The position numbers were made by a program, and so were the translations under genes. The notes beneath the pieces are model-generated. The model made no database searches, had not been told where the DNA came from, and saw nothing but the letters and a program-made list of their open reading frames with translations. DNA of 64,000 nucleotides from a bacterium (lineage in GTDB: Bacteria > Zhuqueibacterota > QNDG01 > CAYUAG01). This document shows positions 1,785-48,983 of the stretch, piece by piece. Within the stretch, counting starts at the first letter, position 1. The number at the start of each line of letters is the position of its first letter. Location of the stretch: the NCBI GenBank assembly GCA_046483025.1, contig JAWODZ010000126.1, positions 11,981 through 75,980 on the forward strand. The letters run 5' to 3'.

Positions 1785-3581
1785 ATGTGGAAGAATAATA
1801 TACGAAATTTTAGTATCATTGCTCATATTGATCATGGCAAGTCTACTCTGGCAGACCGTCTCCTGGAGCATACCCATACTGTATCTCCTCAAACCATGAT
1901 GGATCAGGTTCTTGATGATATGGATTTGGAGCGGGAAAGAGGTATTACCATAAAATCTCATGCCATTACTATGTATTATACTCATTCCGATAGGGAAAAA
2001 TATACCCTGAATCTTATAGACACCCCCGGACATGTGGATTTTTCCTATGAAGTATCCCGCAGTCTGGCTGCCTGTGAAGGGGCTTTGGTGGTTGTTGATG
2101 CAAGCCAGGGAATTGAAGCCCAGACGGTGAGCAATATATACCTGGCTATGGAGAATGATCTTACCATGATCCCGGTTATAAATAAAATTGATCTCCCCGG
2201 GGCTCAAATAGATGAAACCAGAGAACAATTAAAAGAACTTATGGGAGTTTCTGATGAAGAAATTCTCCTGGTAAGTGCTAAGGAAGGCCGGGGTATCAAG
2301 AAATTACTTGATACTATTATTGAAAAGATTTCTGCTCCCAGGGGAGACAGTAAAGCGCCTCTGCGGGCCTTGATTTTTGATTCTGTCTATGATTACTATA
2401 GAGGAGTTATAACCTATATTAAAATTATTGATGGTTGTTTAAAAAAGGGGGATACAATTACATTTTTTTCCAATGGAAAGGAATTTACTGCTGAGGAGCT
2501 CGGATTACTTCGTTTACATCGCCAACCAACTGAAAATTTTAAAACCGGAGAAGTAGGCTATCTGATTGCTAATGTGAAGAATTTAAAAGATGCCAGAGTG
2601 GGGGATACCATAATGTTAGCTGATAATCCTCATCCAGAACCGCTTCCCGGATTTAAGAAATGTAAACCGATGGTGTTTTCGGGGATGTTCCCTGCTTCTG
2701 CAGAGGATCTGGAAGATTTGCGGAACAGTCTGGATCGGTTGCAGCTCAATGATGCTTCTTTAATTGTTGAGCCCGAAAATTCAGAAGCTCTGGGATTCGG
2801 TTTTAGAGTAGGATATCTGGGACTTCTTCATATGGAAATAATACAGGAAAGACTGGAGAGAGAATATGACCAGAATTTAATTACCACTATCCCCAATGTT
2901 GAATACCGTATTACTTTAAATAATGGAGAAAAAGTTTTAATTGATAATCCTGCTCAGTTCCCTGCAAATCATACTATAGAAAAAGTGGAAGAACCTTTTA
3001 TTGCCGGACAAATAATTGTACCAGCTGATTTCCAGGGAAATATTATGCAATTAGCCCAGCAAAGAAGAGGTGTTTATAAAAATACTATTTATCTTGATTC
3101 TCAACGGGTAACACTTACTTATGATTTACCCCTTTCAGAAATCATCTTTGATTTTTATGATAAGCTGAAAAGTATTTCTAAGGGGTATGCTTCTTTTGAC
3201 TATGAGGTGACTGGATTCAGAGAATCAGATATGGTACGAGTGGATATTTTAATAAATTTTGAACCAGTGGATGCGTTATCCATGATTGTTCATAAAGAGA
3301 AAGCATATACCTGGGGGAAGAAATTAACCGGAAAATTGCGGGAGCTCATCCCCCGGCAAATGTTTGAGGTAGCAATTCAGGCTGCAATCGGCAGTAAAAT
3401 TATTGCCCGGGATACAGTTAAGGCTTTAAGAAAAAACGTTACAGCCAAATGTTATGGCGGGGATATTAGCAGAAAGCGGAAACTTTTGGAAAAACAGAAA
3501 GAGGGCAAGAAGCGGATGAAGAATCTGGGGAAGATAGAAATTCCCCAGGAAGCATTTTTGGCTGTTTTACAGATAAAATAG
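1785..3581 (+). CDS. lepA: elongation factor 4 (LepA), translational GTPase
   Basis: 598 aa. G1 motif AHIDHGKSTL, DTPGHVDF and NKIDL motifs. Full-length LepA architecture including the C-terminal LepA_C segment. Confidence 0.95.
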   Translation: MWKNNIRNFSIIAHIDHGKSTLADRLLEHTHTVSPQTMMDQVLDDMDLERERGITIKSHAITMYYTHSDREKYTLNLIDTPGHVDFSYEVSRSLAACEGALVVVDASQGIEAQTVSNIYLAMENDLTMIPVINKIDLPGAQIDETREQLKELMGVSDEEILLVSAKEGRGIKKLLDTIIEKISAPRGDSKAPLRALIFDSVYDYYRGVITYIKIIDGCLKKGDTITFFSNGKEFTAEELGLLRLHRQPTENFKTGEVGYLIANVKNLKDARVGDTIMLADNPHPEPLPGFKKCKPMVFSGMFPASAEDLEDLRNSLDRLQLNDASLIVEPENSEALGFGFRVGYLGLLHMEIIQERLEREYDQNLITTIPNVEYRITLNNGEKVLIDNPAQFPANHTIEKVEEPFIAGQIIVPADFQGNIMQLAQQRRGVYKNTIYLDSQRVTLTYDLPLSEIIFDFYDKLKSISKGYASFDYEVTGFRESDMVRVDILINFEPVDALSMIVHKEKAYTWGKKLTGKLRELIPRQMFEVAIQAAIGSKIIARDTVKALRKNVTAKCYGGDISRKRKLLEKQKEGKKRMKNLGKIEIPQEAFLAVLQIK

Positions 3582-12959: not shown

Positions 12960-14267
12960 ATGAAAACAAGACATACTTGCATTATTGGTGATTCAAGAAA
13001 AATGGATGATATTAAAGATTCTTCCGTCCATTTAGTTGTAACTTCACCTCCTTATTGGCAATTGAAAGATTATGGTTCTGATGAACAAATAGGTTATTTT
13101 GATTCATATGAGGATTACATAAATAATCTTAATTTAGTATGGTTGGAGTGTTTTCGTGTTTTACACCCAGGTTGTAGATTATTGGTAAATATTGGAGATC
13201 AATTTGCTCGGGCTGTATATTATGGACGTTATAAAATAATACCAATAAGAACTGAAATTATTAAATTTTGTGAAACTATTGGTTTCGATTATATGGGTGC
13301 AATAATTTGGCAGAAAAAGACTACGATGAATACAACTGGTGGCGCAACGGTAATGGGTTCTTATCCATATCCTAGAAATGGCATTATCGAAATTGATTAT
13401 GAATTTATTTTAATTTTTAAAAAATCTGGTAAAGCTCCAAAAGTAAGTAAAAAAATAAAGGAGAAATCAAAAATAACTAAGGAAAAATGGAGAAAATATT
13501 TTTTAGGACATTGGTATTTTAATGGTGTTCGACAAAATAATCATATTGCTATGTTTCCCTTAGAATTACCTAAAAGAGCTATTGAAATGTTTACTTTTGT
13601 AGGTGATACAGTTTTAGACCCTTTTTTAGGGAGTGGAACTACATCCTTAGCAGCAATAAAGACAAATCGGAATTCTATTGGATATGAACTTAATGAGGAG
13701 TTTCTTCCTATTATTAAAGAAAAACTTAATGTAAATGAAAAGACTTTTTTTGATGATCATGATTTTGTTTTAAAACATCAAGATTATTTAAATATCAATT
13801 GGAAAAAAGAAATTCAGAAATTAAAATATATTTTTAATGATCCAATTAAGTTTAATAAAAAAATCGACCCAAATAAAATGAAATTTGGATCCAAAATTAA
13901 TATTTCTGATGGTATTAGCGGTGCAAAACGTGAAGAATATTTTTATGTAAAAAAAATTATCAAACCAAATTTGATAAAACTTTCAAATAATTTAATAATC
14001 AAATTAATTGGGGTTAAACCGTTTGAAAAGAAACAAAAAGATGCAATAAAATTTCTTGAGAATAAAATATTAAAACGACCGATTTTTTTAAAGTATGATA
14101 AAATGAAATATGATAAAGAAAATAATTTAATGGCATATGTATATATGAAAAATCGGACTTTCATTAATGCCCATTTAATAAAGAATCAATTATGTGGATT
14201 AGATGATAAATATGATTTTAAATATAAACAAAAATTTGAAACATTTATTAAAGGGGAATATAGATGA
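12960..14267 (+). CDS. beta-class N4/N6 DNA methyltransferase (SPPY then FxGxG order) with a C-terminal SNase-like extension
   Basis: Motif IV VVTSPPYW precedes motif I DPFLGSGTT. Residues about 300-435 are extra and resemble the staphylococcal nuclease fold: IKLIGVKPFE versus FRLLLVDTPE, and NLMAYVYMKNRTFINAHLIKNQLC versus [22 protein letters not shown]. Catalytic Arg/Asp positions are substituted. Lies in an AT-rich (about 27% GC) patch. Confidence 0.8.
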   Translation: MKTRHTCIIGDSRKMDDIKDSSVHLVVTSPPYWQLKDYGSDEQIGYFDSYEDYINNLNLVWLECFRVLHPGCRLLVNIGDQFARAVYYGRYKIIPIRTEIIKFCETIGFDYMGAIIWQKKTTMNTTGGATVMGSYPYPRNGIIEIDYEFILIFKKSGKAPKVSKKIKEKSKITKEKWRKYFLGHWYFNGVRQNNHIAMFPLELPKRAIEMFTFVGDTVLDPFLGSGTTSLAAIKTNRNSIGYELNEEFLPIIKEKLNVNEKTFFDDHDFVLKHQDYLNINWKKEIQKLKYIFNDPIKFNKKIDPNKMKFGSKINISDGISGAKREEYFYVKKIIKPNLIKLSNNLIIKLIGVKPFEKKQKDAIKFLENKILKRPIFLKYDKMKYDKENNLMAYVYMKNRTFINAHLIKNQLCGLDDKYDFKYKQKFETFIKGEYR

Positions 14268-14854
14268 AAACACGTGTTAAAATTAAAAATTCTGAAATTA
14301 AAGAATTACTAGGTACTAAACCAATTGAATTCCCAAAATATTCAACACAAATTATTAATTTAGCAAATCAGAATGCTCAAGGTACTAGACCTCCTGTTGT
14401 TGGTCAAATGAGTGAATTAATTCAAGAATTTACAGGGAAATCTATTTCAGAATGGGAGAAATGGTATTTAGCTAGGCATCCAGATGCTATTGATAAAGCT
14501 ACTGAAAAGATATCTGAAATGGTTGAGAAATTTTGAAATGTAATAAATGAAATTGATCGTAATATGATTGAAGATTGGGTAAAAGATTTAGTAATTATAA
14601 AAACTTTTATAGGATTAAAATTTCAAGAAGCAATTTTAAAGAAAACAGCGAATTTATTAAATACTTCATACCGTTTATCTGACTCTTTAGACGAATCTAA
14701 GGGGATCGATGGATATATAAATGATATTCCAATAAGTATCAAACCTGAAACATATAAAACTAAGAAGAGTCTCCAGGAAAAAATTGAAGTAAAATTTATA
14801 TATTATAAGAAAGTAAAAGATGGAATAAATATTGATTTAGAGGAAATAGTATAA
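14264..14854 (+). pseudogene. MTase-coupled partner ORF (candidate cognate restriction endonuclease) interrupted by a single in-frame TGA at 14534-14536
   Basis: Track ORFs 14264-14536 and 14564-14854 are in the same frame, separated only by one TGA and 9 sense codons. The ATGA overlap with the MTase stop implies translational coupling. A D...SIK segment (GIDGYINDIPISIK) is a possible PD-(D/E)xK-like motif. TGA is a genuine stop elsewhere in the window. Confidence 0.5.
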
Positions 14855-16792: not shown

Positions 16793-18598
16793 ATGGGACA
16801 GACAATGATAGAGAAGATTTTTACCAATCACAGCAGTAAAAAGATTACTGCCGGGGATATTGCAGAAATCAGCATAGATGCCCGTATTGCCAGGGATTTT
16901 GGCGGGGCAAATGTAGTAAAGAATATTCAGTCCCATAATCTTGCAATTGATGATCCTCAAAAAACCTTTTTTACCTTCGACTGTAATCCGGGAGGATCTG
17001 ATCAGCAATATGCAGAGAATCAGCACATCTGCCGTCAGTTTTCCCGGGAACGGGGAATCAAGGTGTATGATATCCAGTCAGGGATCGGTACTCATATTGC
17101 CATTGATGAGGGTCTGGTCCGACCAGGGGGCACGTTGGTATCCACAGATTCTCATGCCAATATTTTAGGATCAATCGGTGCATTTGGACAGGGTATGGGA
17201 GATCGGGACATTGCAGCGGTCTGGTCGGAAGGGAAAATTTGGTTTAAAACTCCGGAAACGGTAAAATTACTTTTTCATGGTACTCCACCAGATGAAATTT
17301 GTGCCAAGGATATAGTGCTGTTTTTATTGAAAAATCTGGGAGCTGCAGGATTATTAGGAAAAGCTGCGGAGTTGGAAGGTGACTATATCCAAACGCTCAG
17401 TCTAAATTCCCGCATAACCATTTCATCCATGGCTACTGAAATGGGTGGTATCATCGCTCTTTTTGCCCCCAATAAGGATGTCCTAGACCATTTTAAGGAA
17501 GCTACTGGAGAGGAGATAGAGCCAGTATACGCAGACAAGGATGCTCGATATGTTGCGGTGAAGGAATGTGATTTAAGTAAGATGGAACCTCTGACTTCCC
17601 TGCCCGGCCATCCGGAGGATGTGGTCAAGGTTACCGACCTGAAAGAAGTCAAAATTGATTCAGCCTTCATCGGATCCTGTACTAATGGACGATTATCAGA
17701 TATGCAAGCAGCTGCTAATATATTAAAGAACCGTAAGGTAGCTCCCGGAGTGGTGTTAAAGATTGTTCCATCTACCCGAAAAATATGGGAGCAGTGTCTG
17801 GAACAGGGAATCATTGATATTTTCATGAAAGCAGGAGCCTTGGTGGGTAATGCCGGTTGTGCCGGCTGTGCCAAGGGACAGATCGGGCAGAACGGTCCGG
17901 GTGAGATCACCATAAGTACCGGGAACAGGAATTTTGCCGGAAAGCAAGGTAAAGGGGAGGTGTATCTGGCCTCCCCGGAAACAGTTGCTGCTTCTGCAGT
18001 CAGCGGAATCATTACCAGTAAAAATAATATTCTGTCAAGTCCGAAAAGATACAAAACGGCAGATTATACAAAATCTGAAAAGAAAGTATCTTCACCAAAA
18101 ACCGAGAAGAAACCGGTAGAAATCCAGGGGCGGGTTTGGGTAGTTGACCAGGATAACATTGATACGGATATGATTTTTCACAATCGTTATCTTACCATAA
18201 CCGATGTTGACGAAATGGGGCAGTATACTTTTGATAATCTCAAAGGCTGGGAGGATTTTTCCGATAAAGCTGAAAAAGGTGACATCATTGCGACCGGATC
18301 CAATTTCGGAGCCGGTTCTTCCCGACAGCAGGCTGTGGATTGTTTTAAAAGCCTGGGAATACAGGCCATAATTGCAAAATCATTCGGAGCAATTTATGAG
18401 AGAAACGGCGTCAATTCCGGTTTTCCATTGATCAGTGGTGATTTGATTTCGTCGGGTATAGAAAGTGGTGAAGAAATAAAAGTGAATTTCAAGACCGGTG
18501 AAATTACCCGGTTAAAAACGGGTGAGACCATTCAGGCACAGCCCTTTTCTGACGTGCAGATGGACATTTATCAGAAGGGGGATCTGTTGAGGAAGTAA
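16793..18598 (+). CDS. aconitase-family dehydratase: fused large (LeuC-like) plus small (LeuD-like) subunits, 3-isopropylmalate/homoaconitate dehydratase type
   Basis: 601 aa. Residues 1-420 are LeuC/HACN-like with the Fe-S ligands ...GSCTNGR... and ..NAGCAGCAKG... Residues about 440-600 are LeuD-like (GSNFGAGSSRQQA). The unfused paralog pair lies at 19927-21677. Confidence 0.8.
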   Translation: MGQTMIEKIFTNHSSKKITAGDIAEISIDARIARDFGGANVVKNIQSHNLAIDDPQKTFFTFDCNPGGSDQQYAENQHICRQFSRERGIKVYDIQSGIGTHIAIDEGLVRPGGTLVSTDSHANILGSIGAFGQGMGDRDIAAVWSEGKIWFKTPETVKLLFHGTPPDEICAKDIVLFLLKNLGAAGLLGKAAELEGDYIQTLSLNSRITISSMATEMGGIIALFAPNKDVLDHFKEATGEEIEPVYADKDARYVAVKECDLSKMEPLTSLPGHPEDVVKVTDLKEVKIDSAFIGSCTNGRLSDMQAAANILKNRKVAPGVVLKIVPSTRKIWEQCLEQGIIDIFMKAGALVGNAGCAGCAKGQIGQNGPGEITISTGNRNFAGKQGKGEVYLASPETVAASAVSGIITSKNNILSSPKRYKTADYTKSEKKVSSPKTEKKPVEIQGRVWVVDQDNIDTDMIFHNRYLTITDVDEMGQYTFDNLKGWEDFSDKAEKGDIIATGSNFGAGSSRQQAVDCFKSLGIQAIIAKSFGAIYERNGVNSGFPLISGDLISSGIESGEEIKVNFKTGEITRLKTGETIQAQPFSDVQMDIYQKGDLLRK

Positions 18599-18798
18599 GG
18601 GGGTGTACTTATAGCCACGGATTTACACGGATAGACATGGATTTAGGTTAGTTAATAATTCTTGAAAAAAAATACCCATGGCAAAATTACCCATTTCCCT
18701 CCCTTGAAGGGAGGGAATAAAGGGAGGGTGAGATCGGAGCAGTCACTCTCCCCGAAAGAGTAGTTACCCTTCTTTCAGAAGGTTAGCTTCTGAATTGT
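18599..18798. repeat. about 200-bp dispersed intergenic repeat (family A), copy 1
   Basis: About 90% identical to 19645-19841. It contains three tandem CACGGATnnn units and a perfect hairpin CCCTCCC-ttgaa-GGGAGGG at 18697-18715. Confidence 0.75.
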
Positions 18799-18804
18799 GC
18801 ACCA

Positions 18805-18842
18805 GGTGGACTCCATCTCAGAGATGGAGTCCACCTTTGTGG
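18805..18842 (+). terminator. candidate intrinsic terminator (13-bp stem GGTGGACTCCATC / GATGGAGTCCACC, 5-nt loop, followed by TTTGTGG)
   Basis: Perfect inverted repeat unique to copy 1 of repeat A, downstream of the fused leuCD gene. The T-tract is weak. Confidence 0.45.
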
Positions 18843-18939
18843 TATATTTAGAAATCTGCTTGATTTATTTGAATTATTTCTATATATTAAAGTTGAACTT
18901 GAAGTTTAACTCTAATATGAAAATGAAAAGGAGCATACA

Positions 18940-19173
18940 TTGAAAAAAATTTCTATGTTACAATTGCGGAAAAATTCAAAACAAATAATCCAATGGGCCC
19001 GGCAGGGGAAAAAAATGATTTTAACCTATAGGGGAAATCCTGTTTTTCGTATTGAACCTATACAGGAAAATTCACCGGATGAAAACGATTTATTTTATAG
19101 TATAGATAAGCTTGCTGTGGATGAAGGGCAAAATATAACCAACCAGAAAATGGATACAATCATTTATGAATAA
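18940..19173 (+). CDS. type II antitoxin, Phd/YefM-like
   Basis: 77 aa. TTG start with RBS AAAGGAG 7 nt upstream. Overlaps the downstream PIN toxin by 8 nt (ATGAATAA). Confidence 0.65.
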   Translation: MKKISMLQLRKNSKQIIQWARQGKKMILTYRGNPVFRIEPIQENSPDENDLFYSIDKLAVDEGQNITNQKMDTIIYE

Positions 19174-19579
19174 AAATATATTTATTGATACCAGCGGTTA
19201 TTATGCTTTACTTATAAATCAGGATAATGCCCATAGAAAAGCAGTAGATATTTTACATGAAGCAGCTGAGGAGAAAATTCAATTTATAACTTCAGATTAT
19301 ATTCTTGATGAGATTGCTACCTTACTTCAATTTCGAGGAGTCGGGCACTTACTTCCTGAATTTTTTAAAAGAGTTTTCAACTCTCAGGCGTGTAGAATTG
19401 AATGGATGGACGAAGAACTGTTTCAGCAAACTAAATTATTTTTTTTCAAAAATAGTGATCATAAATATTCATTCACGGATTGTTTTAGTTTTATATTGAT
19501 GCAAAGAAACGGATTGGAAAAAGCATTGACCAAAGATCATCATTTCCGGGAAGCTGGATTTATTTCTCTTTTGAGTTAA
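19166..19579 (+). CDS. vapC: type II toxin VapC (PIN domain ribonuclease)
   Basis: 137 aa. N-terminal IFIDTSGYYALL with Asp7, and later D/E acidic residues typical of the PIN fold. Confidence 0.75.
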   Translation: MNKNIFIDTSGYYALLINQDNAHRKAVDILHEAAEEKIQFITSDYILDEIATLLQFRGVGHLLPEFFKRVFNSQACRIEWMDEELFQQTKLFFFKNSDHKYSFTDCFSFILMQRNGLEKALTKDHHFREAGFISLLS

Positions 19580-19594
19580 TTTTCAGTGCAAAAA

Positions 19595-19648
19595 CCTCCT
19601 GAAGGTTTCGAATCCTTCATTTCATTCAGGACAGGCTCTTCAGGGGGG
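19595..19648. repeat. REP-like hairpin element (family C), copy 2, directly abutting repeat A copy 2
   Basis: cctcctgaaggtttcgaatccttcatttcattcaggacaggctcttcagggggg versus the copy at 5923-5969. Confidence 0.6.
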
Positions 19649-19841
19649 TGTACTTTTAGCCACGGATTTACACGGATAGACACGGATTTGGGTTGGTAAA
19701 TAACTCTTGAAAAAATTATTCATTGCAAATCACCCATTTCCCTCCCTCGAAGGGAGGAAATAAAGGGAGGGTGAGATCTGAGCAGTCACTCTCCCCGAAA
19801 GTGAAGCTACCCTTCTCTCATAAGGTTAGCTTCTGAATTGT
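19645..19841. repeat. about 200-bp dispersed intergenic repeat (family A), copy 2
   Basis: Aligned with 18599-18798 over its whole length: same CACGGAT triplet and same CCCTCCC..GGGAGG hairpin. Confidence 0.75.
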
Positions 19842-19926
19842 CCACCTAAACTTAAAAAAAATTTATAAAAATTGCTGAAAAATTTGTATCTTTATGATAA
19901 AAGGTTATTAATTAAAAAAGGCATAT

Positions 19927-21198
19927 ATGATGGGAAAAACATTTATTGAAAAAATGCTTGCCAAAAAATCCGGTAAAGAATCTGTAGAGGTTGGAGAAAT
20001 AGTAACAGTGAAACCTGATCATCTTTTAACTCATGATAATACCTCGGCTATAATTTCCAAGATCAAACCGGAATTAAAAAAATATGGAGTAGTTGATCCT
20101 GAATTTCCGGTCATTGTTCTTGATCATGTCATTCCGGCTGCCAGTGAAAAGAATGCATCCGGTCATAAAAAAATACGCGAGTTTGTAAAAGAACATTCCC
20201 TGATAAATTTTTTTGATATTGGAGAAGGAATCTGTCACCAGGTAGTGTATGAAAAGGGACTGGCTTTACCGGGAATGCTGGTGGTTGGAAGTGATTCCCA
20301 CACCTGTTCTTATGGTGCAGTGGGAGCCATGTCAATCGGAATTGACAGAACCGAAGCAGCAAGCTTACTGCTTACCGGTGAAATGTGGCTAAAGGTGGTT
20401 CCAACTATCAAGGTAACTGTTAAGGGTACACTGCAGCCCGGTGTGTCTGCCAAAGATGTCATCCTATATTTTATTGGTAGAATAGGTGCAGATGGTGCTA
20501 CCTACTGTGCAGTAGAATTTCACGGAGAAGTAGAGAATCTCAGCATGGATGAGCGCTTTACCATTGCCAATATGGGAATTGAAATGGGAGCCAAGATAGC
20601 AGTTTTTCCGGTGGATACTCTAACCAGAGAGTTTTTATCTTCGATAGGTATTAAGTCCGGTAGTTACAAGGAAGTTTGGGCTGATAAAGATGCTGAGTAT
20701 ATGGAGGAGCTAACCATTAATCTAAATGAGATCACGCCGGTGATTGCCAAACCGCATACGGTTGACAATGTAGTTAAGATCAGTGAAGTTAAGGGAACAT
20801 CCATTGATCAGGGATTGATCGGGACCTGTACCAATGGCAGATTAAGTGATTTCAGAGAAGCTGCAGAAATTCTTAAGGGGAAAAAGATTGCTAAAAATTT
20901 CCGGCTTTTAATTCTTCCGGCTTCCAGAAATATTTATCGACAGTTAGTGAAAGAGGGATTAATGGATACTCTGGTGGAATCAGGGGGAGTTATACTGCCC
21001 CCGGGTTGCGGTCCCTGTCTGGGGGCGCACCAGGGAGCTCTGGCTCCGAAAGAGACATGTCTGAGTACGGCAAACCGGAATTTCAAAGGGCGTATGGGTT
21101 GCAAGGAAGCAGAAATCTATCTGGGAAGTGCTCAAACAGTCGCAGCATCTGCTCTGTATGGTAAAATAACTGATCCCAGAAAGGAGATTAAAAAATGA
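19927..21198 (+). CDS. leuC: 3-isopropylmalate/homoaconitate dehydratase large subunit (archaeal-type LeuC)
   Basis: 423 aa. Motifs ..GSDSHT.., GTCTNGR and PGCGPCLG. Confidence 0.85.
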   Translation: MMGKTFIEKMLAKKSGKESVEVGEIVTVKPDHLLTHDNTSAIISKIKPELKKYGVVDPEFPVIVLDHVIPAASEKNASGHKKIREFVKEHSLINFFDIGEGICHQVVYEKGLALPGMLVVGSDSHTCSYGAVGAMSIGIDRTEAASLLLTGEMWLKVVPTIKVTVKGTLQPGVSAKDVILYFIGRIGADGATYCAVEFHGEVENLSMDERFTIANMGIEMGAKIAVFPVDTLTREFLSSIGIKSGSYKEVWADKDAEYMEELTINLNEITPVIAKPHTVDNVVKISEVKGTSIDQGLIGTCTNGRLSDFREAAEILKGKKIAKNFRLLILPASRNIYRQLVKEGLMDTLVESGGVILPPGCGPCLGAHQGALAPKETCLSTANRNFKGRMGCKEAEIYLGSAQTVAASALYGKITDPRKEIKK

Positions 21199-21677
21199 AG
21201 GTATGGAAATATAGTGATGATATTAATACTGATATGCTTTTCCCGGGTAAATATACCTATACCTGTTCCACACCCGAGGAAATCAAACCTCATTTACTGG
21301 AAGATTTGGATCCTGATTTCAACAAGCAGGTCCAACCAGGGGATGTTATTTTTGCCGGAAAGAATTTTGGCTGCGGCAGTTCACGAGAACAGCCGGCTGT
21401 AGGATTAAAACATGTGGGGATAGCAGCAATAGTAGCAAAAAGTTTTTCCAGAATTTTTTACCGTGCCTCTTTAAATCAGGGATTACTACTTATAGAATCT
21501 CCTGAAAGTGTGGAAGCTTATACTTCCGGGGATCAGGTAGAGATAAAAGCCAGGGAAGGGAAAATATTGGTTGGGGATAAAGAATTTAGCTTTCCCCGAC
21601 TCCCTGATTCTATTATCGGAATAATGGAAGCAGGTGGATTACTGGAATATACTCGGAGGAGGTTGGGAAAAAGTTAG
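21195..21677 (+). CDS. leuD: 3-isopropylmalate/homoaconitate dehydratase small subunit (LeuD)
   Basis: 160 aa. GKNFGCGSSREQ motif. Its ATGA overlaps the leuC stop. Confidence 0.85.
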   Translation: MKVWKYSDDINTDMLFPGKYTYTCSTPEEIKPHLLEDLDPDFNKQVQPGDVIFAGKNFGCGSSREQPAVGLKHVGIAAIVAKSFSRIFYRASLNQGLLLIESPESVEAYTSGDQVEIKAREGKILVGDKEFSFPRLPDSIIGIMEAGGLLEYTRRRLGKS

Positions 21678-21785
21678 GTTCGGTTAAGGTTCAGGGTTCA
21701 AAGGTTCAGAGTTCAGGGTTGGAAGGTTAATAATCAACATATATCCTGAATTTTAAACCCGGAACTCAGAACTCTGAAATTTGAA
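21677..21785. repeat. short tandem repeat (GGTTCAG-type heptamers) plus complementary CTGAA-rich arm forming an imperfect long hairpin
   Basis: aggttcggttaaggttcagggttcaaaggttcagagttcagggttgg, then ...cctgaattttaaacccggaactcagaactctgaaatttgaa. TTCAGAGTTC pairs with GAACTCTGAA. Confidence 0.6.
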
Positions 21786-46880: not shown

Positions 46881-47084
46881 ATGTTCGGAGGAATGATTAT
46901 TATCTGGATTTTTATAGTTGTAGGAGTTATCTGGTTGATCAGATATTTGACTGAACAAAAAAATATGAAAAATAATGAAATGGAAAAAGAAACCAGCGCC
47001 CTGGATATATTGAAAATACAATATGCCAAGGGTGAGATCAACAGAGAAGAGTTCAAGAAACGTAAAAAAGATTTAGAAAATTAA
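46881..47084 (+). CDS. SHOCT-domain small membrane protein (copy 1)
   Basis: One TM, then ALDILKIQYAKGEINREEFKKRKKDL, the SHOCT signature. Confidence 0.7.
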   Translation: MFGGMIIIWIFIVVGVIWLIRYLTEQKNMKNNEMEKETSALDILKIQYAKGEINREEFKKRKKDLEN

Positions 47085-47088
47085 AAAA

Positions 47089-47340
47089 TTGAAAGGAGTG
47101 AAAATTATGCATGACTGGGGAATGATGAACTGGGGCTGGGGCGGTATGATTGTTCAATTGCTTTTCTGGATAGTTATTATTGTTGCTATTATCTGGGCAA
47201 TCAGGCATTTTACCGGACCTGGTCGAAGTGATGGATCTGCTTCCGGCAGTGAATCGGCTCTGGATGTACTGAAAAAACGTTACGCCAGCGGAGAGATCGA
47301 CAAACAAGAATTTGAAGAAAAGAAAAGGGATATTTTATGA
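47089..47340 (+). CDS. SHOCT-domain small membrane protein (copy 2)
   Basis: W/G-rich N-terminus, one TM, ALDVLKKRYASGEIDKQEFEEKKRDIL. An alternative start at 47107 is possible. Confidence 0.7.
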   Translation: MKGVKIMHDWGMMNWGWGGMIVQLLFWIVIIVAIIWAIRHFTGPGRSDGSASGSESALDVLKKRYASGEIDKQEFEEKKRDIL

Positions 47341-47779: not shown

Positions 47780-48016
47780 ATGCACGGATGGGAGTTTATG
47801 CACTGGGGCTGGTTTGGTTTTATTGTGCAGATTATTTTCTGGGTAGCAATCATACTGCTTATAGTATGGGTGGCAAAGAAAGTCACAGAGTCAGGTTCCG
47901 GAGATCGATCTTCTTCTGCGGGAGAATCAGCCCTGGACATTTTGAAAAAAAGATATGCCAAGGGAGAGATTGACAAAGATGAGTATGAAAAAAAGAAAAA
48001 GGACTTGACTGCATGA
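47780..48016 (+). CDS. SHOCT-domain small membrane protein (copy 3)
   Basis: MHGWEFMHWGW.. TM, then ALDILKKRYAKGEIDKDEYEKKKKDL. Confidence 0.7.
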   Translation: MHGWEFMHWGWFGFIVQIIFWVAIILLIVWVAKKVTESGSGDRSSSAGESALDILKKRYAKGEIDKDEYEKKKKDLTA

Positions 48017-48781: not shown

Positions 48782-48983
48782 AATTCGGTTAGAGTTGGAG
48801 GTTGTTATATAAGTTTACAAAAATGAAACCACAGGATACACAGAGAAAATAAAGAAGTTAAAAAGTATATGAATTAGTAATCCCCTTATTTTATTTTTTG
48901 CTCTGTGTATTCTTTATGGTTTTTTGTCATCCTTTAGTTTGTAAATCAATGTTAATGTAAAATTCGATAATAAAATACTGAAT

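Follow-up and report, generated by a model that had tools for sequence, protein, structure and literature searches.

The analysed stretch of DNA, 64,000 nt from contig JAWODZ010000126.1 of assembly GCA_046483025.1 (hereafter the window), contains two direct copies of a non-coding repeat of ~214 nt, designated here repeat A and located, as read off the sequence, at 18599–18812 and 19644–19856. Each copy carries near its 5′ end an array of three CACGGAT-type heptamers, and this array is the conserved module at the end of a palindromic insertion element found in many bacterial phyla as well as in viral sequences. The element is apparently undescribed; the array sequences are absent from the searchable literature. 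Taking the evidence together, repeat A is best seen, with a probability of roughly 0.55, as a mosaic of non-coding modules in a 3′-untranslated-region (3′-UTR) position, resembling the repetitive extragenic palindromic (REP) sequences and bacterial interspersed mosaic elements (BIMEs), its 5′ module being a terminal arm of the widespread palindromic element and both copies in the window being relics.

The two copies share one layout—a leader GGGGGTGTACTT(A/T)TAGC, the three heptamers, an AT-rich stretch, three hairpins and the tail GCTTCTGAATTGT—and exhibit 92% identity in each ungapped block (88% when gaps and the ends are included). The leader begins at 18602 in copy 1 (GGTGTACTTATAGCC) and at 19647 in copy 2 (GGTGTACTTTTAGCC). 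In copy 1 the heptamers are CACGGAT (18616–18622), CACGGAT (18626–18632) and CATGGAT (18636–18642), the third unit thus carrying a C-to-T change, and in copy 2 all three, at 19661, 19671 and 19681, are identical CACGGAT. The phased triplet in each copy, which the original prediction had described from the letters alone, is therefore confirmed with an exact 10-nt period in both copies and with accurate coordinates; the repeat as a whole is, however, longer than had been indicated, and its leader, given there as (T)TAGCC, is present but differs between the copies by an A/T substitution and not by an optional T. Array 1 begins 17 nt past the stop codon of a gene of the aconitase family, so that it is intergenic with its prefix edge abutting the gene. 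The repeats and their arrays are as follows:

18599..18812, + strand: repeat A copy 1 (direct-repeat families D2 and D3, pairwise alignment)
18616..18642, + strand: array 1, CACGGAT-tta-CACGGAT-aga-CATGGAT preceded by TTATAGC (fits the family consensus)
19644..19856, + strand: repeat A copy 2 (direct-repeat families, pairwise alignment)
19661..19687, + strand: array 2, CACGGAT-tta-CACGGAT-aga-CACGGAT preceded by TTTTAGC (TTTAGC being among the two commonest prefixes of the family)

The family was defined by scanning one genome per species (596 Gb) with the pattern CACGGATNNNCACGGATNNNCAYGGAT, for which ~0.5 matches would be expected by chance according to our own estimate (1.2e12 positions × 4^-20 × 0.5). 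The phased triple pattern was found in more than 120 unrelated genome loci, and a further 67 stretches with the same pattern were found in IMG/VR, some contigs of which possess five to seven arrays. The matched phyla—according to the labels in the records of the metagenome-assembled genomes—cover Acidobacteriota, Verrucomicrobiota, Planctomycetota, several proteobacterial classes, Bacteroidota, Nitrospirota, Omnitrophota, Spirochaetota, Chloroflexota and others, the G+C content of the loci across the genome matches ranging from 0.38 to 0.73. Within the window, the 29-mer occurs with up to three mismatches at two sites only, i.e. in the two copies of repeat A, and at none in 100 shuffled sequences; together with the number of unrelated genome loci, this excludes chance. 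It should be pointed out that the family was chosen by the exact triple-heptamer pattern and that two-unit and variant arrays are consequently under-sampled.

The consensus of the family can be written as T-rich-A-R-C followed by (CACGGAT-nnA)x2 and CACGGAT. Several of its features lie outside the search pattern: the base at position −1 before the first unit is C in 81% of the arrays, −2 is a purine in 95%, −3 is A and −6 to −4 are T-rich, and A precedes units 2 and 3 in 69–76%. Exactly three units are present in 224 of the 234 arrays (96%), a distribution of lengths that slippage would not be expected to produce. Phasing, unit count and flanking bases are kept in about 190 loci, the opposite of the lack of conserved CACGGAT phasing in other copies that the original prediction had named as its refutation. 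Both window arrays exhibit the features of the family, i.e. three CAYGGAT units at the exact 10-nt period, the prefix and spacers ending in A.

The palindromic nature of the complete element follows from the partner arms. An inverted ATCCGTG arm is located within 600 nt in 88 of the 143 genome-locus arrays (~60%), with a median loop of 42 nt, the remaining ~40%, as well as most of the viral arrays, being solitary. Beyond the array, complementarity between the arms continues for 5 nt on the outer side and does not extend into the loop, which defines arms of ~32 nt with sharp edges. Where an array is solitary, a gene directly adjoins its prefix edge in 38 of 46 cases, compared with 13 of 46 for its other edge; the genes at the prefix edge comprise 21 gene ends and 17 gene starts, so that no bias relative to gene direction is seen by this test of stop and start proximity with crude ORF calls. 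The array is thus the outer end of an inserted block, with no preferred orientation towards transcription. Around 66 complete elements there was no signal of a target-site duplication, and the only neighbour families to recur at the array loci were GxxExxY (5–6 loci) and DnaB-like helicases (6 of 187 loci), with no recurring transposase. Neither the complete element nor the consensus arrays gave a credible match among PLSDB plasmids and GenBank phages.

Concerning the role of the heptamers, only the outermost partner unit was required in the search, and the two inner partner units nevertheless match the heptamer in 70–85% per position and keep the 10-nt register, whereas the spacer positions of the partner arm are complementary in 39–65%. 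The heptamers are therefore kept much better than the spacers even in units that had not been selected, which supports sequence-specific recognition; the constraint on them is stronger than pairing alone would impose. The original prediction of binding by a multimeric protein is in this respect partly borne out: the phasing and the conservation of the heptamers argue that each of them is recognised in a sequence-specific way, for which a multimeric protein is plausible.

A different explanation takes the arrays as nothing else than halves of hairpins formed by RNA or single-stranded DNA—brackets similar to intervening sequences (IVSs), which would be cut by RNase III and let the cassette sit in an operon—the periodicity being a by-product and no specific protein being involved. 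Inverted arms of ~32 nt bracketing ORFs of ~0.4 kb are indeed reminiscent of the 23S IVS of Coxiella (PMC4990558), cassettes lie inside operons (pyrB–pyrC, fab genes), the heptamer type varies between elements, yet matches between the two arms of one element, and position −2 covaries between the arms (0.80 vs 0.48 in shuffles). However, the same heptamer is repeated three times within an arm while the spacers diverge and are often mismatched, the 3-nt spacers being poorly complementary between the arms (56% Watson–Crick pairs vs 41% in the shuffled control), ~40% of the genome-locus and most of the viral arrays possess no partner arm, strand bias relative to genes is lacking, and a stem does not require exactly three units. 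Pairing as the sole reason for the arrays is accordingly considered somewhat unlikely.

The longer elements of the family carry a gene. Six paired arrays have loops of ~0.4–0.6 kb, and five of these enclose an intact GxxExxY gene in either orientation, the sixth (L058) containing a disrupted one; the assignment is based on TIGR04256 (124 bits) and on Pfam PDDEXK_3 (PF13366) of the PD-(D/E)XK nuclease superfamily. A different ORF of 189 amino acids is found inside a longer element, L098. In addition, three GxxExxY genes that had not been selected for arrays are also bracketed by inverted 9–10-nt periodic arrays made of other heptamers, namely CACAGAG, CGCAGAT and CACAAAG/CACGAAG (a second such gene of L110 and those of two IMG/VR loci). 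Proteins closely homologous to that of L027 are encoded, with the same arms, in the gap separating pyrB from pyrC as well as downstream of folD, and in L217 two arrays in direct orientation flank a GxxExxY gene, like the arrays of the window. The GxxExxY/PDDEXK_3 family is large (6,776 clusters at E ≤ 1e-10 in one search); a sequence search of the PDB with its profile revealed no solved relative, and the literature mentions GxxExxY in passing only. Many of the GxxExxY homologues P0181–P0300 have N-termini such as MN(T/A)DEHG or MNFEEEPRMNADEHG and C-termini such as ..NHG or ..TTDEHR, which are translated flanking arrays, so that the database gene models for GxxExxY are often extended into the repeats.

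Several further observations concern the arrays themselves. Phage-like contigs with five to seven solitary intergenic arrays comprise L186, L171, L183 and L161 (IMG/VR 3300037067_012809), L194, and L156/L139/L204; in one phage-like contig, a second type of array (AACCACGAAGgaCACGAAGggaCACGAAG) follows ~16 nt past each CACGGAT array. A DnaB-like helicase gene lies beside the array in five viral loci and one bacterial locus. In L116 and L104, tandem repeats of ~240 nt join a CACGGAT array to a sequence resembling the T-arm of tRNA (GGTTCGAGCCCG). In the window, two-unit relatives of the array family may be recognized at 48826–48920, where AAACCACAGGATACACAGAG and CTCTGTGTATTCTTTATGGTTT form an inverted pair, and at about 6092 on the − strand (ATAACCACAGAATTCACAGAG).

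Repeat A itself belongs to a block of inserted DNA. The relatives of the locus were found as homologues of the fused aconitase-family protein encoded upstream of repeat A, and their contigs were then read. In L136 (82% amino acid identity of the aconitase gene product), two aconitase-family genes are separated by 51 nt only, TAA-AGCGGTTGTATCTTTATGATAAAAGG...ATG, the spacer possessing neither a toxin–antitoxin (TA) pair nor the repeat; in the window, the native sequence matching this spacer is back from 19885 (TGTATCTTTATGAT). The stretch 18599–19884 is thus inserted DNA, ~1.3 kb in length, placed between the gene of the fused large- and small-subunit aconitase/homoaconitase family (16793–18598) and a leuC-like gene (19927–21198), the region 19927–21677 encoding separate large and small subunits of the same family. 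The original prediction was right in stating that the flanking genes do not account for the element: the block is an insertion missing from a relative. Its remaining parts are given here:

18599..19884, + strand: inserted block (copy 1, terminator-like hairpin, phd–vapC, copy 2, AT-rich tail)
18892..18910, + strand: operator-like palindrome GTTGAACTTGAAGTTTAAC ahead of phd, in the control region of the cassette itself (similar ones at homologous TA pairs in L131, L132 and L134)
18940..19173, + strand: phd/yefM-type antitoxin gene (Pfam PF02604, E = 2e-5, below the gathering score)
19166..19579, + strand: PIN-domain (vapC-type) toxin gene overlapping the antitoxin gene (Pfam PF01850, 34.6 bits vs the cut-off of 23.6)
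19600..19619, + strand: small hairpin past vapC (homologous to a hairpin module before the array in L134)

The VapC homologues in L131–L133 belong to phd–PIN pairs that lie in unrelated contigs and have the operator-like palindrome but neither repeat A nor arrays; repeat A is therefore not intrinsic to the TA cassette. This bears on two ways of tying the triplet to the genes around it. In the first, it would be an operator- or iteron-like site of a host regulator of the aconitase/leuCD-like operon or of the TA pair, by analogy with MraZ boxes or the 10-bp phasing of OmpR/PhoB sites. Known phased operators share the geometry of three direct heptamers with 3-bp spacers. Moreover, the unit junction GAT-nnA-CAC reads T[GT][GA]ACA, resembling a −35 hexamer repeated every 10 bp (e.g. 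18632–18659). The same array, however, has hundreds of unrelated genes as neighbours, across many phyla and also in phage-like contigs, it is missing at the orthologous empty site, a single unit is left in a relative that retains the TA pair, and homologous TA pairs elsewhere have no array but their own operator-like palindrome; a host operator is thus very unlikely. Three other candidates were considered and dropped: a CsrA sponge; a three-frame stop-codon insulator, many spacers having no stop codon; and replication iterons, the window block being flanked by metabolic genes and DnaB-like genes lying beside arrays in 6 of 187 loci only.

In the second, the two copies would be attC-like sites of an integron bounding a gene cassette, comparable to the VCR-type repeats around toxin–antitoxin cassettes. 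Direct repeats of 88–92% identity do surround a TA cassette with its own promoter and each of them can fold, but there are no RYYYAAC/GTTRRRY core sites at the repeat ends, no integrase-like ORF was called within about 5 kb on either side, a single cassette is present and the repeats are mosaics of modules common to non-cassette contexts. Such an origin is most improbable.

The relatives exhibit a varied series of modules at the same intergenic site. L134/L135 (85% identity) keep the window-like order of flank, hairpin, phd, PIN, flank and hairpin, but their flanks contain a single CACGGAT unit, behind which stands a periodic hairpin of another kind (GATTAACGATTTTAGATTT... / ...AAATCTAAAATCGTTAATC); of the further modules of the window, these flanks retain hairpin 3, the tail and the terminal hairpin but lack hairpin 2. 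Yet other small periodic hairpins are located past the same stop codon in L137, L138 and L207. In L206 (77% identity), the site is occupied by a RAYT-like (REP-associated tyrosine transposase) ORF of 189 amino acids with an HNHYH motif and a weak match to Pfam Y1_Tnp (E = 3.5e-4), flanked within 2540–3470 by three copies of a REP-type hairpin GTGAAACATC(A/C)GGGATGTTTCAC and by GCAGCATCCATGGTGCTGC, this hairpin being different from repeat A. Given this variety of hairpin modules, the site is a fast-changing dump of REP-like modules in the lineage. A further palindrome with periodic arms at a gene 3′ end is seen in the window at 21677–21778, directly past the leuD-like stop codon, where a hairpin has arms of 7–8-nt periodic GGTTCAG(R) units (GGTTCAGGGTTCAAAGGTTCAGAGTTCAGGG ... 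AACTCAGAACTCTGAA).

Within a genome, the two flanks share 88% identity; between genomes the value is 58–73% (computed over the shorter sequence), as against 85% for the TA DNA. Since the flanks are more alike within than between genomes, the sequences suggest gene conversion between them or their repeated replacement. A 13-nt motif, GGKTGTA(T)CTTTWAGC, is present at the left edge of each inserted module, at 18601–18614, 19646–19659 and 19883–19896 in the window and at about 2455–2470, 2528–2545 and 3783–3796 in L134; it may represent a duplication, microhomology or a coincidence.

As far as the remaining modules of repeat A are concerned, the hairpins are real in terms of pairing. The CCCTCCC (18697–18703), ttgaa and GGGAGGG (18709–18715) of hairpin 1 form a stem reaching about 18693–18718, and the GGGAGGGTGA at 18722–18731 is complementary to TCACTCTCCC(C) at 18743–18753; in copy 2, CCCTCCC is found at 19740 and GGGAGGGTGA at 19765. 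Beyond the two pairs described in the original prediction, there is a third hairpin at 18762–18788, and copy 1 alone has behind it a perfect 16-bp hairpin (18804–18836) followed by TTT. The latter is terminator-like, although its T-tract is too short for a consensus terminator scan; it follows both flanks in L134, has been mostly deleted after copy 2 in the window, and exhibits a compensatory change of A..T to T..A between the window and L134. The structured features are the following:

18674..18682, + strand: ACCCATGGC, paired by RNAfold with GCCACGG at 18613–18620
18693..18718, + strand: hairpin 1, TTTCCCTCCCT-tga-AGGGAGGGAA (fold, copy comparison)
18722..18752, + strand: hairpin 2, GGGAGGGTGA / TCACTCTCCC (10 bp with one G–U pair)
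18762..18788, + strand: hairpin 3, AGTTA.CCTT...AAGG.TAGCT (followed by GCTTCTGAATTGT, conserved in L134)
18804..18839, + strand: terminator-like perfect 16-bp hairpin then TTT (fold; flanks in L134)
19736–19761, 19765–19795 and 19805–19831, + strand: hairpins 1–3 of copy 2 (fold)

The hairpin region differs between the two copies at nine positions, seven of them unpaired and two in stems, where pairing is kept both times via G–U on the + strand: a G-to-A change in copy 2 turns the U–G pair of hairpin 1 into U–A, and hairpin 3 has a U–G pair in one copy vs a C–G pair in the other. The G–U pair of hairpin 2 is invariant between the copies and would be an A–C mismatch on the other strand. By a rough estimate, the probability of such a pattern by chance is below 1%, which, with two sequences only, is a weak hint at structures in the transcript.

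From these stems the original prediction suggested a transcribed structured RNA. Spelled out, repeat A would encode a structured small RNA or else act as a cis-regulatory RNA, with a promoter in the array region and a transcript of ~175 nt covering hairpins 1–3 and ending at the terminator-like hairpin. The hairpin pairs are confirmed and the copy differences spare the stems, with G–U pairs on the + strand only; a sigma-70-like match, TAGACA-16-AATAAT, is found at 18632–18659 (10 of 12 positions), and the three hairpins and the strong terminal hairpin lie downstream of it. On the other hand, the covariance-model search that had been proposed as a check found no Rfam family even at E ≤ 10: with Rfam 15, including TwoAYGGAY and Acido-Lenti-1, the window gave no match at the gathering threshold and nothing relevant at E ≤ 10, and 18 loci of the family gave nothing relevant either, the sole Acido-Lenti-1 match, in L103, being 1.2 kb off and unrelated. 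Promoter-like matches are as frequent as in shuffled sequences (6 vs a mean of 6.0). Copy 2 has no terminator-like hairpin and a weaker −10 element, and it folds no better than shuffled sequence (z = −1.9). Neither hairpin 2, absent from both homologous flanks of L134, nor the array is kept in that relative, and the whole element is missing at the empty site of L136. In view of the lack of an Rfam match, of a hairpin 2 that a relative can do without and of a copy 2 that folds no better than shuffled sequence, a dedicated structured RNA is judged unlikely. Being sited between a stop codon and a terminator-like hairpin, repeat A is probably transcribed as a 3′ UTR, and the hairpin stack with the terminator-like hairpin would probably provide 3′-end structures for the + strand transcript of the upstream gene.

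Based on the above results, the following course of events may be proposed for the preferred reading of repeat A as a REP/BIME-like mosaic. A complete element would have two ~32-nt arms facing each other around a short loop or a ~0.4-kb GxxExxY gene, the three heptamers most likely serving as in-phase recognition sites on one helix face for an element-associated protein; by analogy with RAYT and REP sequences, the enclosed GxxExxY protein itself is a candidate binder. The inverted arms would also permit a hairpin or cruciform marking the ends of the element. The window arrays are probably relics that are no longer active, since they have no proper partner arm and the third unit of copy 1 is mutated. 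In the inserted block no ATCCGTG is present, so both arrays are solitary, and the ACCCATGGC at 18674 could possibly be what decay has left of the outermost unit of a partner arm once present. The direct repeats may have arisen when the self-regulated phd–vapC cassette came between them, a resident copy having either served as the site of recombination or been duplicated, and the copies would since have been kept more alike than orthologues, as gene conversion between them would do.

Several points weigh against this reading. The arrays in the window are in direct and not inverted orientation. Neither the window nor the viral loci with arrays contain a GxxExxY gene, and no protein that binds the arrays was identified. 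No full-length relative of repeat A was found, a BLAST search against 120 array loci having matched the triplet only and a metagenome scan for hairpin 2 (GGGAGGGTGA-N6-16-TCACTCTCCCC) having yielded nine matches, all unrelated sequences; with just two copies in the 64 kb in addition, repeat A as a whole is unlike a dispersed repeat. The heptamer type differs between the cassettes of one genome (L110), so that a single host factor cannot recognise all of them; each protein would need its own specificity, or else the role of the arms would be purely structural, as a hairpin or an RNase III substrate. The 13-nt motif at the module edges resembles the native GGTTGTATCTTTATG of the L136 empty site, and the test for gene direction relied, as mentioned above, on crude ORF calls.

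A more far-reaching proposal is offered tentatively. The CACGGAT-type arrays and their variants (CACAGAG, CGCAGAT, CACGAAG and others) might define the ends of a class of small selfish cassettes, so far undescribed and spread across phyla, with numerous gene-less derivatives and sited in housekeeping operons and phage genomes, in which the enclosed PF13366 protein would recognise the heptamers as a nuclease-based counterpart of the RAYT–REPIN (REP doublet forming a hairpin) system; the window repeat would then be a relic that helped to capture the TA cassette. The window element itself, a decaying mosaic, probably matters little to the physiology of the cell, supplying 3′-end hairpins and marking the boundaries of the inserted TA cassette. 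The wider value lies in a sharply defined cross-phylum DNA motif with a fixed prefix and unit count, which gives the GxxExxY/PDDEXK_3 family, a family without known function, a testable DNA partner and may be used as a signature to annotate the cassettes and to drop spurious ORFs (MNTDEHG..., ...IRVHPW) translated from the arrays.

Two other regions of the window deserve mention. Upstream of a rotamase gene, 12960–14854 contains a DNA-methyltransferase-like ORF (435 amino acids, SPPY motif) and two small ORFs; at that position, L136 and L137 have TraB, LexA-like and Y-family polymerase genes, and the region may be an inserted restriction–modification island. A 77-nt coding repeat is present in three copies (46998–47074, 47257–47333 and 47930–48006; 69–75% identical) encoding ALDILK..YAKGEI..EEF..RKK, apparently a short repeated domain in neighbouring ORFs.

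Among the known systems, the REP/BIME/REPIN sequences, the ORF-bearing 23S IVSs and the miniature inverted-repeat transposable elements (MITEs) are the closest in behaviour, although the defining features of each are not all present. Phased protein-binding sites—MraZ boxes, OmpR/PhoB boxes, iterons and the arm-type sites of lambda Int—share the arrangement of three direct repeats spaced by one helical turn, in which the core is conserved and the spacers vary; the arrays described here are, in contrast, dispersed, often in inverted pairs, tied to no gene class or replication gene, composed of units shorter than iterons and without a known cognate protein. The core ACGGAU/AUGGAU also fits the AYGGAY of the TwoAYGGAY RNA (RF01731) and the A(N)GGA of CsrA sites, but no cmscan match was obtained at E ≤ 10, there is no strand bias, and in complete elements the motif is in the stem and not in the loop. 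The Correia (NEMIS) MITEs are likewise small, non-autonomous and intergenic with terminal inverted repeats of ~26–30 bp, and they are co-transcribed with their neighbours and can form RNA hairpins; the present family differs by having neither a target-site duplication nor a recurrent transposase neighbour and by heptamers kept across phyla with freely varying spacers, and the copies in the window have no inverted end.

The 23S IVS of Coxiella burnetii has a 28-bp terminal stem and an internal S23p ORF, is cut by RNase III and is regarded as selfish (PMC4990558). The resemblance of such ORF-bearing IVSs (S23p/four-helix-bundle) consists in terminal inverted repeats of ~28–32 bp around an ORF of ~0.4 kb of unknown function, while the present elements are located between protein-coding genes, have periodic heptamer arms and carry GxxExxY instead of S23p. 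A bracket of this kind is seen in the GxxExxY cassettes of the family but not in the window with its direct arrays and TA cargo.

Compared with the REP sequences, each of which is a single hairpin with a GTAG head and lineage-specific, the arms here consist of three 10-nt-phased heptamers and the array motif is cross-phylum; the enclosed gene belongs to PDDEXK_3 and does not encode an HUH Y1 transposase, repeat A has two copies only in the 64-kb window, and no RAYT gene is among the ORFs at 14–24 kb beside it. What both have in common is that they are short intergenic imperfect palindromes, occurring as inverted doublets and singlets and as mosaics by stop codons, with no target-site duplication and with a small nuclease-family gene flanked by its own repeats—and, in L206, a RAYT-like ORF with REP hairpins occupies the very site at which repeat A is inserted in the window.

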